NCBI GenBank assembly: GCA_963756005.1
Contig: CAVWMC010000001.1
Coordinates: 198,872 to 262,871, forward strand
DNA length: 64,000 nt
Direction of reading: 5' to 3'
Source: an uncultured delta proteobacterium
GTDB lineage: Bacteria; Desulfobacterota; Binatia; Binatales; Binataceae
The position numbers and the translations under genes were made by a program. Below the pieces are notes generated by a model. The model did not search any database. It was not told the DNA's origin and saw only the letters and a list, made by a program, of their open reading frames with translations. Every line of letters starts with the position of its first letter. Position 1 is the stretch's first letter. This document shows positions 7,178 to 19,034 of this stretch, piece after piece.

Positions 7178-9724
<2,547 letters not shown>

Positions 9725-9763
9725 TTAATCCGGGCTCCCCCGAGTTACATACAGAAATTCGGA

Positions 9764-13471: not shown

Positions 13472-13536
13472 GGCTAAACCTCATACCCGCGAATGTACGA
13501 AAGCGCGCCCGCAATGTGAAGCGAATCGAATCGAAT

Positions 13537-13788
13537 GCGGGGCTACGCGCCCCGCGCCCGCGGCAGGGGTGACCCCTGCACCCACTGTTCGGTAAGGGAA
13601 TATGCGGGCTGACGCCCGGTTAGGAAGCTTTGGGCGTGAGGACGCGAAGCGACCTCGTGCCCGTAGTCGCGCACAAAGCTCGACGTTCCTGCCATAAAAC
13701 TTCTAACAGGGACGGAGTCCCGCATCTTCTCTCTTATCACTGGGTGCAGGGGTCACCCCTGCCGAGGGTGCGGGGCGAGCAGCCCCGC
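13537..13788. repeat. REP-like/REPIN-like element: 48-bp inverted arms (44/48 identical) around a ~150-nt self-complementary core
   Basis: Arms 13537-13584 and 13741-13788 are reverse complements; each holds two small hairpins (GCGGGGC..GCCCCGC and GCAGGGG-TGA-CCCCTGC). Confidence 0.85.
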
Positions 13789-13791
13789 GTC

Positions 13792-15582
13792 TCAATCGAC
13801 GTGTTGCAAATCGGTCAGCATCTCCTGCGGCCCGATGTATCCGACTTTGCGCTGCGCCACTTTGCCGGCCGAGTCGATTAGCATGGTCGTCGGCACGCCC
13901 TGGATTTCGTACTTGCTGGTCAGCTCCGCGGTCTTTTTGTCCTGCGCGGTGAGGTTCGCCTTCATCCGCACGAAGCGCTTCGCCTCGGTGACCACGGACG
14001 GATCGATAAAGGTCGAATGCTCCATTTCGCGGCACGGAATACACCAATCGGCGCTGAAGTCGATCAGCACCGGCTTGCGCGCTTCGGTGGCTGACGCGAG
14101 CGCTTTGGCGTTGAACGGCTCGAAGCGAAGTTTCTCCGGCGCCTGCCGCGGATAGAGCATGAAGGCGAGCGCCGCCACCGCGACCACGCCGATCGCCGAC
14201 CGCATCAACAGGAACGGACGCCAGCTACGACCCTCGCGCGAAATGAAGCCGAGGTAAATTCCAACGCCGGCCGCGTAGTACGGCAGGATTCGCGTCATCA
14301 GGTTGTTCGGCACCACCGGATCGAGAAAGTAGAGCGCGAGTCCGACCAGCACGAAGCCGAACAGATGCTCGACCCACGCCAGCCACTCGCCCGATCGCGG
14401 CAGGCGCCGAATATGCCCTGCCGCCATCGCGAGCCCGATGTATGGCACGCCAAGCCCCAGTGCCAGCGTGAAGAACAGCGCGAAACCAAAAAATGGGCTC
14501 CCGCTTTTCTCGACCATCAGCAGCAGACCGAGCACGATCGGCCCGATGCAAGGCGCCGCGACGACGCCCATGCCGAGGCCCATCAGAAATGCGCCCGCGT
14601 AGCCGGGATGCGCCGCGCCCGCGCGCTGCAGCATCCACTGAGGCGGCTGCAAAACGAACAGGCCGAAGCTCGACGCCGCCAGGGCCAGGAGCACCGTTGC
14701 CAGGGCGACGAGCACGAATGGATTTTGCATCGCGGCGCCGAACAGCCCGCCCGACATCGCGACCGCTACTCCCACCGACGAGAACATCAGCGCGATGCCG
14801 AGCACGAAAACCATCGCGAGGTACATCACGCGGCGATGAGTGCCGCCCTGGTTGCCGAAGTAGGCGATCGTCACGCCGATCAGCGGATAGACGCAGGGCG
14901 TCAGATTCAGCGCGAGGCCGCCGAGAAACACCGCGAGGAAGCCGAGCAGCCATCCGTGATTGAGAAAGATATGCTCGATGGCGCCGCCCGCGTCATCGCC
15001 GCCGCCGACTCCACGGCCCTTCGCGCCGCCCGCGGCAACGCCCTCGATCGCGCCCGCGGCCGCTCCTGGAGCCGCCAACGCGACTGTCGTGCTGACGGAT
15101 GCGGGCCGCAGACATTCGTTGTTGTTACAGCCCTGGTAGTCGATCGTGACCTTGAGTTCATCGCCCGGCTTCGGCGCGAAGTCGGCAGCCGCCTTGAGCG
15201 GCACCTCAAACTTGAGATCGCCGCCGAACACCGCAATCTTGTCGCCACCGGCCGCAGGATCGAGCGTTATCGTTTCCGCCGGCGGATACTTGATTGCGCC
15301 CGGCGTCACGCTGACCGGCCCGCTGACCTCGAGCTTGGTCGGAATGTAATCTTCGCTGAACGGCTTGTCCGAATTGATATGCCAATCCGGAATAACGGCG
15401 GCGGCGACTTTGAGCGTGCTCGAACCGCCGGCCTTCAGCGGAGGATCGATCGTCGCGGAATTGATTATTACAAGGTCATTCGCCTTGACGGCATGCGCCG
15501 CAGGCACCGCAAGCAAAGTTACGGCAAGGAACGCTCCAGCCAGTATTGTGCCGCGCAAAAGCGATCGGAAATTGCCCGTCAT
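13792..15582 (-). CDS. dsbD: Thiol:disulfide interchange protein DsbD
   Basis: Signal peptide, N-domain QGCNNNECLRP, TM cysteines LTPCVYP and AAPCIGP, C-terminal thioredoxin WCIPC. Confidence 0.9.
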   Translation of the reverse strand: MTGNFRSLLRGTILAGAFLAVTLLAVPAAHAVKANDLVIINSATIDPPLKAGGSSTLKVAAAVIPDWHINSDKPFSEDYIPTKLEVSGPVSVTPGAIKYPPAETITLDPAAGGDKIAVFGGDLKFEVPLKAAADFAPKPGDELKVTIDYQGCNNNECLRPASVSTTVALAAPGAAAGAIEGVAAGGAKGRGVGGGDDAGGAIEHIFLNHGWLLGFLAVFLGGLALNLTPCVYPLIGVTIAYFGNQGGTHRRVMYLAMVFVLGIALMFSSVGVAVAMSGGLFGAAMQNPFVLVALATVLLALAASSFGLFVLQPPQWMLQRAGAAHPGYAGAFLMGLGMGVVAAPCIGPIVLGLLLMVEKSGSPFFGFALFFTLALGLGVPYIGLAMAAGHIRRLPRSGEWLAWVEHLFGFVLVGLALYFLDPVVPNNLMTRILPYYAAGVGIYLGFISREGRSWRPFLLMRSAIGVVAVAALAFMLYPRQAPEKLRFEPFNAKALASATEARKPVLIDFSADWCIPCREMEHSTFIDPSVVTEAKRFVRMKANLTAQDKKTAELTSKYEIQGVPTTMLIDSAGKVAQRKVGYIGPQEMLTDLQHVD

Positions 15583-15638: not shown

Positions 15639-16811
15639 CTATTTGGCGGCGCCTGCGTGCTTGCCGTTGGTCGAAAGCGGGACCGATCCCACGATTTCCA
15701 GTCCGTAGCCCGGCAGATTCGCCAGCCGCGGCGTCGCGTCCGACATGATGATCATCTTGCGCACGCCAACATCGCGCAGAATCTGTGCGCCGATTCCGTA
15801 ATCGCGGAAATCAGCTTCCGGCTGGTTGGCCCGCGTAGTCGCGCGCTTCGCCGAGCGCCCATTGTCGAAATCCGCCGCCAGCGCATTCGACTCGCGCTTG
15901 AGATACAGCAGCACGCCCTCACCCGCCGCCGAAATTCGTTCCATCGCGGACCGCAGCAGGTTGCGCGTGTTGCGCACCGAGTAGCCGAACACGTCGCCGG
16001 GCAAATACTCGCGATGCGCCCGCACCAGGATCGGCTTTTTCGGATCGACCTTGCCCATCACCAGCACCAGGTGCTCGGTATAATCGACCAGGTTGCGATA
16101 AACGATCGCGCTGAATTCGCCGTACGCCGTCGGCAGCTTCGCTTCCGCGATTCGCTGCACCATCGTCTCGTTGCGCAGCCGATACTCGATAATGTCCGCG
16201 ACCGTGACAATCTTGAGCCCGTGCACTTTTGCGAACTCGACCAGGTCGTCGCGCCGCGCCATCGTGCCGTCATCCTTCAGAATCTCGCAGATGACGCCGG
16301 CCGGCTTCAGTCCCGCCAGGCGCGCCAGATCGACCGCGCCCTCGGTCTGCCCCGTGCGCACCAGTACGCCGCCGTCGCGTGCGCGCAGCGGATAGACGTA
16401 GCCGGGCGTGATGAACTCACTACCGCTGGCGTCCTCGCGCACTGCCTGCAGAATCGTCGTCGATCGATCCTGCGCCGAGATTCCCGAGCCCGACGCCCGC
16501 CGCGCGGTGATCGCCGTCGTGAACGCGGTGCCGAGCGGCGCCTGGTTATCGCCAATCATCATGCTGAGGCCCAGCCGGTCGATCCGCTCCGCCGACATCG
16601 GCAGGCAAATCAGCCCGCGCCCGAACTTGGCCATGAAGTTGACGGCCTCGGGCGTCGCCTTCTCGGCCGCCATGCACAAATCGCCCTCGTTCTCGCGCTG
16701 CTCGTCATCCATCAGGATGATCATATGTCCGCGACGAGTTTCCTCGAGCGCTTCCTCGATCGAAATGAACGGCGCGCGCGCCTTCTTGCGGGGACTTATC
16801 TCACCAAACAT
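15639..16811 (-). CDS. ribB: RibBA/RibBX-like protein (DHBP synthase domain plus degenerate GTP cyclohydrolase II-like domain)
   Basis: RENEGDL, GLICLP and ISAQDR motifs; the C-domain keeps RDYGIGAQIL but has no Zn-binding cysteines. Confidence 0.85.
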   Translation of the reverse strand: MFGEISPRKKARAPFISIEEALEETRRGHMIILMDDEQRENEGDLCMAAEKATPEAVNFMAKFGRGLICLPMSAERIDRLGLSMMIGDNQAPLGTAFTTAITARRASGSGISAQDRSTTILQAVREDASGSEFITPGYVYPLRARDGGVLVRTGQTEGAVDLARLAGLKPAGVICEILKDDGTMARRDDLVEFAKVHGLKIVTVADIIEYRLRNETMVQRIAEAKLPTAYGEFSAIVYRNLVDYTEHLVLVMGKVDPKKPILVRAHREYLPGDVFGYSVRNTRNLLRSAMERISAAGEGVLLYLKRESNALAADFDNGRSAKRATTRANQPEADFRDYGIGAQILRDVGVRKMIIMSDATPRLANLPGYGLEIVGSVPLSTNGKHAGAAK

Positions 16812-16896
16812 TCTGCGGCTCTCGCTAAACTCTTACTCAACTATATACCGTCAGCCAAGCATTCCCGAAGGTCGGCGCGATGCTATCTTGGGCGAG

Positions 16897-17655
16897 GTGG
16901 CGGCGGAAATTAATACGGCGGTCCTGCTGGGGGCTGGGCGCGGCAAACGTCTGGGCGATTTGACGGCAAACACGCCGAAACCGATCCTCGACATCGCAGG
17001 CGCGCCGCTGATTTCGCACATCGTTGACGCGCTGACCGGCGCCGGACTGGCGCGTTTTATCGTGGTGACAGGCTACCTGTCCGCGCAAATCGAAAAATGG
17101 GCGAAAACCTACGAGCGCGAAAATCCGGGCGTCGGAATTATCACCGTCAGGCAGCCGGAACTGAACGGAACCGGCGGCGCGATGCTCGCGGCGAAGACTC
17201 ATCTCGCCGGCCACGCGCGCTTTGTCTTCGGATGGGGCGACATCCTGATGGACCGCGCCAACTATCCGCGCTTCATCCATCACGCGCGGATCGACGAGTA
17301 CGATTTGATGCTCGCAGTGAATCGCGTGAAGGATCCGTTTCGCGGCGCGGCGGTTTACGTGACCCCGCACATGATAGTTGAACGGCTCGATGAAAAACCG
17401 GCGCCCGGAACCGCGCAGACCGAATGGAACAACGCCGGGCTCTTCGCCACCGGCCAGATAATTTTCGACTACCTCGCGCGGCTGACGCCGTCCGTGCGCG
17501 GTGAGCTCGAGCTGCCCGCCGCAATCGCGCAAATGATCGCCGACGGCCGCGTCGTCCGCGCGGTTGATATGCGCGGATTCTGGAGCGACGTCGGCACGCC
17601 CGAAGATCTCGAGGCGGCGCGCGCATGGTTCAAGCCCAAAAGGAAGCGGCGATGA
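16897..17655 (+). CDS. Sugar-phosphate nucleotidyltransferase (NTP_transferase family)
   Basis: VLLGAGRGKRLGDLTANTPKP signature, QPELNGTG, WSDVGTPEDL; GTG start chosen at 16897. Confidence 0.88.
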   Translation: MAAEINTAVLLGAGRGKRLGDLTANTPKPILDIAGAPLISHIVDALTGAGLARFIVVTGYLSAQIEKWAKTYERENPGVGIITVRQPELNGTGGAMLAAKTHLAGHARFVFGWGDILMDRANYPRFIHHARIDEYDLMLAVNRVKDPFRGAAVYVTPHMIVERLDEKPAPGTAQTEWNNAGLFATGQIIFDYLARLTPSVRGELELPAAIAQMIADGRVVRAVDMRGFWSDVGTPEDLEAARAWFKPKRKRR

Positions 17656-19034
17656 ATCTGCCCGACGGATGGGACGCCGAAGAGTTGGCGCGCGCGAAAC
17701 TGCTCGGCGCGAAGATTCCAACCAGCGCGAACGCGCAAATCTTCGCGGCGCGCGCGCCCGGGCGCGTCAATCTGATCGGCGAGCACACCGACTACAGCGG
17801 CCTGCCCGTGCTGCCGGTCGCGATCGATCGATCAACGATTGTTATTGCCGCCGGCAATGACACCGGTGAAGTCGAGTTGGCGAACGCCGACCCGGCGTGG
17901 CCTGCGCGTCGTTTCGAAATCGAACGTCATATAGCGCCTTATGAAACCGGCGATTGGGCGAACTACGTAAAGGCTGCGATTCAGGGCGTGCTTGATCAAT
18001 TCTCTGCGCGCAGCAACTGGCGCGGCGCTTCGATGGTTGTCGGCAGCACAGTGCCTCCCGCCGCGGGGCTTTCGTCATCGAGCGCGCTCACCGTCGCTAC
18101 CGCGATGGCCTTCATGGCGGTAAACCAACTCGAACTGGATCCGCTGGAAACCGCGGCGATGGTTGCGCGCAGCGAACGCTACGTCGGAACGCACGGCGGT
18201 GGGATGGATCAGGCAGTCTCGATTCTCGGCCGCCGCGACCACGCGCTGTTCATCGAGTTCGACCCGCTGCGCGTGCGCGCGATTAAGATGCCGGCGAACG
18301 CGGCGCTGGTCGTCGCAGATAGCAGGCAAATCGCGGACAAGTCGGGAACGGTGCGAGCGGAATACAATCGGCGCGTCGTCGAATGCTCGCTGGCGGCGCG
18401 GATTCTCGGGCATGCGCTCAAGCTCGACGGCGTCAGAATCCTGGGCGACCTCGTTCGCGCACTGCCGCATCGGAACGCGGCGGACCTTGTTGAAACACTC
18501 GCGGCGGCGGCGCCGGCCCGGCTCAACGCGAATCTTAAAGAGGCGGCGAGTATTCTCGGCGTCGCGCAATCGTCGCTCGACGCGGAGCTGCTCGGCCACG
18601 GATCGACTCGAATCGTGCTGGATTCAAGCCGCCCACTGGAAATTCTAAAGCGCGCGCGTCACGTCCTGAGCGAGACCAATCGCGTGATTCGCGCGGCGGA
18701 CGCGCTCGAAGCGGGTCATCTCGACGAGATGGGCGCGCTGATGAACGCGTCGCATCAGAGTCTCGCCGGCGACTTCGAGTGCAGCACGGCGCGCCTCGAC
18801 GCGCTCGTGGAATGTGCGCGGCGCGGCGGCGCGCTCGGCGCACGGCTGACGGGCGCGGGCTTCGGCGGTTCGATCGTCGCGCTATGCGACGTGACCAGGG
18901 CGGAGGCGGTGATCGAATCGATCGATCGCGGCTACTACGCGCAGCAGCATCCGGGCGCGCCGCCGGAACCCTGGCGCGCCGTGTTCCATTCCGGCGCGGG
19001 CGCGAGCGTGCTCGATTTGAGTGCTACCGCTTGA
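17652..19034 (+). CDS. galK: GHMP sugar kinase, galactokinase / N-acetylgalactosamine kinase-like
   Basis: APGRVNLIGEHTDY, PPAAGLSSSSA, ERYVGTHGGGMDQ and GARLTGAGFGG motifs; ATGA overlap with the nucleotidyltransferase. Confidence 0.9.
   Translation: MNLPDGWDAEELARAKLLGAKIPTSANAQIFAARAPGRVNLIGEHTDYSGLPVLPVAIDRSTIVIAAGNDTGEVELANADPAWPARRFEIERHIAPYETGDWANYVKAAIQGVLDQFSARSNWRGASMVVGSTVPPAAGLSSSSALTVATAMAFMAVNQLELDPLETAAMVARSERYVGTHGGGMDQAVSILGRRDHALFIEFDPLRVRAIKMPANAALVVADSRQIADKSGTVRAEYNRRVVECSLAARILGHALKLDGVRILGDLVRALPHRNAADLVETLAAAAPARLNANLKEAASILGVAQSSLDAELLGHGSTRIVLDSSRPLEILKRARHVLSETNRVIRAADALEAGHLDEMGALMNASHQSLAGDFECSTARLDALVECARRGGALGARLTGAGFGGSIVALCDVTRAEAVIESIDRGYYAQQHPGAPPEPWRAVFHSGAGASVLDLSATA

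Follow-up and report, generated by a model that had tools for sequence, protein, structure and literature searches.

RibBX proteins have been described in Proteobacteria, for Shewanella and others. In the prozyme heteromers (trypanosomatid deoxyhypusine synthase and AdoMetDC/prozyme), an oligomer with its active site at the interface was duplicated, the paralogues are complementary, and full activity needs the heteromer. In Arabidopsis, RIBA2 and RIBA3 are RibBA paralogues of which one has lost the GTP cyclohydrolase II (GCHII) function and another the essential residues of DHBP synthase (DHBPS) (PMC3509567). The DHBPS site itself is shared between subunits: in Vibrio cholerae, loops 1-3 come from one monomer and loops 4 and 5 from the other, loop 4 comprising residues 103′-111′ with Thr107′ and Thr108′ and loop 5 residues 132′-138′ with His137′ (PMC5228156). 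The catalytically required Mg is coordinated by V. cholerae His154 (PMC9305975), and in a fungal enzyme the histidine equivalent to His137′, His133, hydrogen-bonds the carbonyl of the ligand (PMC12268802). Hereafter, residues that a protein supplies to its own site are called cis, and those in the loops that serve the site of its partner are called trans.

The locus described here lies in a window of 64,000 nucleotides, the whole stretch of DNA that was analysed, from a genome of the Binataceae (Binatia). It encodes a RibBX-like RibBA paralogue, hereafter W, with the following features.

15639..16811, minus strand: W gene, RibBX-like RibBA paralogue, 390 aa (open reading frame and Pfam)
16182..16757, minus strand: DHBP synthase domain of W, aa 19-210 (Pfam DHBP_synthase, 260 bits)
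15678..16154, minus strand: degenerate GTP cyclohydrolase II-like ("X") domain of W, aa 220-378 (Pfam GTP_cyclohydro2, 140 bits)
16398..16400, minus strand: codon TAC of Tyr138 of W, in loop 5, which acts in trans
16347..16349, minus strand: codon CAG of Gln155 of W, at the metal-ligand position
16476..16499, minus strand: loop 4 of W, aa 105-112, RASGSGIS
13792..15582, minus strand: dsbD, which begins 56 bp after the W stop codon

Residue numbers were fixed by the alignment ranges to PDB entries (E. coli 1G57, query 13-215 on chain 11-213; V. cholerae 7UEZ, query 14-214 on chain 13-213), which place W at E. coli + 2 and at V. cholerae + 1. Tyr138 of W corresponds to E. coli His136 and V. cholerae His137, and Gln155 corresponds to E. 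coli His153 and V. cholerae His154. The DHBPS assignment was clear: PF00926 matched with 260 bits against a cut-off of 26.4, and the DHBPS-only NCBIfam model TIGR00506 with 227.3 against 177.45. The full-length RibBA equivalogs of NCBIfam all fell below their cut-offs on W (the best, NF010626, with 425.7 against 513; NF006803 was also below). The closest relatives, with 80-97% identity, are proteins of Candidatus Binatus and Binataceae MAGs that carry the PGAP name DHBP synthase. The strings PGYVYP, RTGQTEG, and RAHREYLPGDVFG, from which a first-pass annotation of the locus had read W as degenerate in both domains, were all found in its translation.

For the cyclohydrolase-like domain, the first-pass annotation had pointed to the absence of zinc-binding cysteines, and this was borne out, since the three RibA ligands are replaced by Tyr269, Arg280, and Thr282 in W. 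Only 25 of the 76 conserved GCHII columns are kept, and the Q-E-G-R-G-I-G segment (substrate loop) is lost or deleted. The X domain of W is dead in 56/56 Binatia genomes, and in the protein studied here it is predicted to be catalytically dead. W thus combines a DHBPS domain with a GCHII-like domain without zinc ligands in a genome that is predicted to encode a functional GCHII elsewhere, which is also the arrangement of proteobacterial RibBX (6MNZ, A. baumannii). However, the RibBX proteins of Pseudomonas and Alteromonas keep GVTTGIS, PGH, and GHTE, whereas W lacks the lid threonines and, in Binataceae, His136. In addition, the GCHII partner of W is a full-length RibBA paralogue with trans loops, not a short RibA as for RibBX. 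W scored 315 bits with Mycobacterium tuberculosis RibBA versus 278 bits with 6MNZ, and the W clade was placed beside same-phylum RibBA in a tree from which proteobacterial RibBX were absent. The grouping of W with RibBA of its own phylum, together with the different trans loops of RibBX, suggests that W probably originated independently of the proteobacterial proteins.

The second sign of degeneration had been the GQTE motif of the DHBPS domain, taken as a defect with the caveat that it may be tolerated in some lineages, and with the admission that its being common in genomes with a single ribB would speak against a loss of function. At the position of the metal ligand His153, W indeed has Gln155. 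The same residue was found in 24/30 same-phylum RibBA proteins, all with an intact, cysteine-bearing RibA domain and all encoded in genomes with one DHBPS-domain match, and, among the 150 nearest clusters at 50% identity, in ~37. Most same-phylum genomes with one RibBA therefore carry GQTE in it, and a Planctomycetales MAG with a single RibBA does so as well, so that the caveat proved right and the defect reading did not. Because Gln is the natural state in single-match genomes, His153 does not strictly define a DHBP synthase, and Gln at the metal-ligand position appears to be ancestral, as well as common, in the phylum of W.

The first-pass annotation had recommended a search of the genome for a canonical ribBA. 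The source genome encodes exactly two DHBPS domains and two GCHII domains, with no third DHBPS domain, and the second pair belongs to a RibBA, hereafter C, that is canonical in its RibA part but degenerate in its DHBPS-like part.

Contig C8, 839.6-840.8 kb: C gene, 403 aa, in the gene order nrdR-ribD-C-nusB

The RibA domain of C has all three cysteines, and PGAP names the protein GTP cyclohydrolase II. Within the genus, C is found next to ribD. Its DHBPS-like domain is without the acidic loop, Cys67, His153/Thr154, and Glu174, but still reads TTGIS..DR and PGH. Among 121 Binataceae C proteins, PGH was present in 121/121 and the TTGIS..DR core was invariant, with loop 1 occurring in 53 variants and Glu174 lost. 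In this respect, C resembles the long RibA represented by NCBIfam NF006456/PRK08815 (a 376-position model), in which a live GCHII domain follows a DHBPS-like domain without an acidic loop; the protein scored on this model was W rather than C, and W gave only a weak match to it (75 bits; cut-off 464). Judged by these residues, W appears to be the only gene of the source genome with a usable DHBPS cis site. In ribD, which lies beside C (locus L105, ~9620-9760), a 1-bp insertion by a (GC)7 run splits the deaminase domain over two frames, and the frame is intact, with 414 aa, in three genomes of the same genus. Either the source assembly is in error at this point or ribD has been inactivated in this strain.

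With regard to the pathway, ribH, ribE, and ribD are present in the source genome, and the retention of ribH and ribE indicates that DHBP is still needed. The rib genes are dispersed, with W and ribH ~65 kb apart on contig C1, ribD-C-nusB on contig C8, and ribE on contig C14; W and C are accordingly unlinked, on different contigs and without a shared operon. No FMN riboswitch was found near W or C with Rfam, nor genome-wide with the FMN model in this 95% complete genome, and a regulatory link between W and C, looked for via riboswitches, was not found. Annotation of the neighbourhood confirmed two earlier statements, namely that no rib gene adjoins W and that W lies upstream of dsbD, which is directly downstream on the same strand. 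dsbD adjoins the W orthologue in 18/55 other Binatia genomes (families f1, f51, f55, and f57), and no functional link between dsbD and W is evident from this partly conserved adjacency.

Several other elements were observed around the gene. Upstream of W, an ORF of 294 aa (16837-17721, minus strand) had no Pfam match; counterparts with 38-72% identity are encoded by four other genomes of the Binataceae. The ORF and a divergent galactokinase-like gene (17625-19034, plus strand) overlap at the start of the latter. Between dsbD and a TenA/haem-oxygenase-like gene, there is a near-perfect hairpin of ~270 nt (13530-13795; MFE -196.6 kcal/mol, z = -12.5), the arms of which belong to a palindromic repeat that is dispersed through the genome (82 matches). 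A match of 13535-13790 to Rfam MIR918 was rejected, as its score of 53 bits is below the gathering score of 268 and it arises from the long hairpin rather than from a plant microRNA.

The residues with which W would build its own site are all present (R39-E40-N41-E42-G43-D44, Cys69, Arg152, Gln155-Thr156-Glu157, and Glu176), and the cis columns vary little or not at all among 120 close homologues (acidic loop, Cys69, Arg152, Thr156, Glu157, and Glu176). The dN/dS of the W DHBPS domain was 0.045-0.08, the lowest of the regions measured; that of the W X domain was 0.12-0.35, indicating moderate purifying selection, and that of the whole C protein was 0.08-0.26. The open frame in all relatives and the low dN/dS rule out a pseudogene. 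The proposal that W has lost both activities could thus be upheld for the RibA part, with its missing zinc ligands and its 25/76 columns, but not for the DHBPS part, with its invariant cis residues and its dN/dS of 0.045-0.08. For the same reasons, namely the conserved cis residues and the lowest dN/dS, it is improbable that W is a fully dead pseudoenzyme or a regulator, as the first-pass annotation had suggested. A dead GCHII domain, a replaced His136, the lack of an adjacent rib gene and of an FMN riboswitch, and the position beside dsbD in four families would all suit such a role. However, the metal- and substrate-binding cis residues would hardly be invariant in 120 homologues of a noncatalytic protein: the N-terminal domain of C, which is a truly noncatalytic copy, loses its cis residues quickly, with 36% retention. 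Moreover, GQTE is normal, and W holds the only usable cis site in a genome that retains lumazine synthase and riboflavin synthase.

The changes that do set W apart are found in its trans loops. His occupies the position of Tyr138 in 143/144 distant homologues, which confirmed that its replacement by Tyr is rare. In the 120 close homologues, column 138 is Tyr in 115, His in 3, and Cys in 2, Tyr being encoded by TAC or TAT and Cys by TGC; Tyr at this column of W-type proteins was seen only in Binataceae. At the columns that are at least 90% conserved in the 144 distant homologues, Binataceae W deviates at five only, 100, 106, 109, 138, and 140, and within the family the states are A/P/S at 100, A/C at 106, S/K at 109, and Y/H/C at 138. 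Compared with the canonical loop 4, x-G-V-T-T-G-I-S, the trans "lid" threonines have become Gly108-Ser109, so that at the trans positions His136 and Thr107/Thr108 W presents Tyr138 and Gly108-Ser109. On the V. cholerae loop assignment, four of the five changes are placed in or beside loops that would serve the site of the partner and not that of W itself. The Planctomycetales MAG, which has one RibBA, reads GVGSGVS (lid Thr-Thr to Gly-Ser), PGHVN, and GQTE there. The change of Thr108 to Ser alone appears to be tolerated, because it is present in the only RibBA of this MAG.

In the literature searched for mutagenesis of His136/His147, nothing specific was found; the residues named in the 2022 JACS mechanism paper are limited to Glu39 and His154. 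The case for a functional role of His136 is built on its conservation, on the inhibitor complex of the fungal enzyme, and on the V. cholerae loop assignment. The first-pass annotation had also considered that PGY might be common where it stands in the only RibB. PGY was never seen in a sole RibB: 7/7 Binataceae genomes examined, six with Tyr and one with Cys, have in addition another RibB-like domain, in which PGH is intact.

Since five near-invariant columns have changed together in one family and the rest of the site has stayed fixed, it is conceivable that Binataceae W was neofunctionalised via remodelled loops 4 and 5, binding some sugar phosphate in place of ribulose 5-phosphate or giving another product. 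We regard this as highly improbable. The genome contains no other DHBPS candidate, the gene neighbourhood of W points to no other pathway, and the changed residues vary within the family, which fits relaxation better than a new specificity.

The distribution of the two copies was analysed across the class. W and C were both found in 56/60 other Binatia genomes sampled, and in the tree the W clade and the C clade were each monophyletic with support 100 and had an identical basal split, indicating that the duplication predates the Binatia radiation and that the copies co-diverged. Two Binatia MAGs, both rated 99-100% complete, deviate in that one has C only and the other W only. Each would be without one riboflavin step under any model, and these absences are therefore probably assembly gaps.

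The retention of conserved residues was scored in 47 genomes of 14 families (f1, f2, f51, f53-f60, f63, and f65). W retained 94% of the cis columns and 76% of the trans columns, whereas C retained 36% of the cis columns and 92% of the trans columns. At single columns of the same 47 genomes, C kept Thr109, Asp115, and His138 in 100% of cases, and W kept Thr109 in 4% and His138 in 85%. Retention of the two halves of the site is thus complementary between W and C, which is the pattern expected of a composite-site heteromer of paralogues. In families f52, f62, and f64 (7 genomes), by contrast, W is fully canonical (trans columns 95%) and the trans loops of C are degenerate (48%), with C reading PGY or PGN in 4/7 genomes. 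This contrast between family groups corresponds to one or two basal splits and is not a replicated correlation. W retains His136 in 13/14 families and, with few exceptions, Gly110 and Asp115. The trans half of W has therefore degenerated only in part, and in most Binatia homodimers of W may still be functional.

From the sequence patterns, phylogenetic distribution, and selection observed for W and C, we infer that the two proteins would form a heterodimer and that W:C would be the catalyst. A heterodimer of W and C with one composite DHBPS site is the reading that we slightly favour. In such a scheme, the Binatia ancestor would have duplicated ribBA, after which the two copies would have degenerated reciprocally. 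In W, the RibA activity would have disappeared, followed later by parts of the trans loops, with His136 giving way to Tyr or Cys in Binataceae, and C would have kept RibA, lost the cis half of its DHBPS-like domain, and retained its trans loops invariantly. In the composite site, W would supply the cis half, that is, the acidic metal/substrate loop, Cys67, Arg150, the metal ligand Gln, Thr154, and Glu174 (E. coli numbering), and C would supply His126 and Thr96/Thr97 in trans to the site of W; the single live GCHII site of the W:C dimer would be on C. If the site is composite in this way, the change of His to Tyr in W would be harmless, and it may represent the last ratchet step that locked W and C together. 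The wider claim, that DHBP synthase is a W:C heterodimer in most Binatia and an obligatory one in Binataceae, with one live GCHII site, stands at about an even chance in our judgement.

In structural modelling, W(12-215) with C(1-203) reached an ipSAE of 0.93 versus 0.00 for the best of three controls; because DHBPS homodimers have already been solved, this pass speaks for likeness and compatible geometry and not for binding or for a preference of heterodimer over homodimer. The ipSAE mark applied is reached by 58/80 solved complexes and by 2/110 mismatched pairs. The model runs agreed in at least 98% of contacts, with a partner pLDDT of at least 90, and placed loops 4 and 5 of C, with residues 96-102 and His126, against Leu67, Glu176, and residues 178-184 of W.

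The changes in loops 4 and 5 could instead mean that W works on its own, as a homodimeric DHBP synthase like RibBX, in which Tyr138, or Cys in some genera, takes over from His136 as hydrogen-bond donor to the substrate carbonyl, the changes at 100, 106, 109, and 140 remodel the site to fit, and C is a GCHII only. We consider this account, the main rival of the heterodimer, possible but rather doubtful. It draws on the strong purifying selection on the W DHBPS domain, the unlinked W and C genes, and the precedent of proteobacterial RibBX, which are presumed homodimers, 6MNZ of A. baumannii being a two-domain DHBPS. The hydrogen bond that fungal His133 donates to the ligand carbonyl (PMC12268802) could also be made by a Tyr hydroxyl; the states His, Tyr, and Cys are all ionisable or hydrogen-bonding and are connected by single-base steps (CAC-TAC-TGC). 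Furthermore, the three close homologues that retain His read PGHVYP, indicating that Phe140 changed to Tyr before or with the change of His138 to Tyr, possibly as compensation. However, a self-sufficient W leaves unexplained why, in 14 families, a cis-dead C would show 100% retention of Thr-Thr, Asp115, and His138, and why the loops of C decay exactly where W is fully canonical. The near-universal His of the distant homologues (143/144) and the PGH and TTGIS kept by all proteobacterial RibBX likewise count against this account. Finally, family f52 shows the same change from His to Tyr in its C domains, which are clearly relaxed, and this suggests that Tyr reflects relaxed selection rather than adaptation.

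The proposed W:C heterodimer can be set against the systems described above. Reciprocal subfunctionalisation of a bifunctional RibBA is common to Arabidopsis and Binatia, although plants also keep a bifunctional RIBA1 (PMC3509567); a division of the DHBPS site, with the cis half in one paralogue and the trans half in the other, has not been reported for Arabidopsis and is proposed here for Binatia. Prozymes differ from W:C in fold, pathway, and domain of life, and the W:C heteromer is put forward from sequence only. In the literature searched, no earlier report of a heteromeric RibBA, or of a DHBPS site split between paralogues, was found.

RibB-like domains that are dead in cis and kept in trans (TTGIS/TSGIS..DR and PGH, with an intact RibA) were also observed in Blastococcus, a Solirubrobacteraceae MAG, and a Lentisphaeria MAG. 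In the latter two, canonical DHBPS copies coexist with the cis-dead, trans-kept copies, and retention of the loops does not in itself prove dependence. A homologue search with the C-like protein of Blastococcus returned only distant RibBA and RibBX proteins and none from Blastococcus, and among four MAGs examined there was no second case of complementary loss, though cis-dead, trans-kept copies were present.

For annotation, the case of W teaches that neither GQTE nor a dead RibA domain implies a dead RibB. If the W:C heterodimer is correct, Binatia would offer a clean bacterial case of an interface-site homodimer split into interdependent paralogues, class-wide and with the intermediate stages extant, and it would be the first such split found in riboflavin biosynthesis within the literature searched. 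The degenerate RibB-like domains that precede RibA in several phyla may persist by donating trans loops, and single-gene rules for riboflavin synthesis in uncultured soil Binatia would miss such a dependence between W and C.
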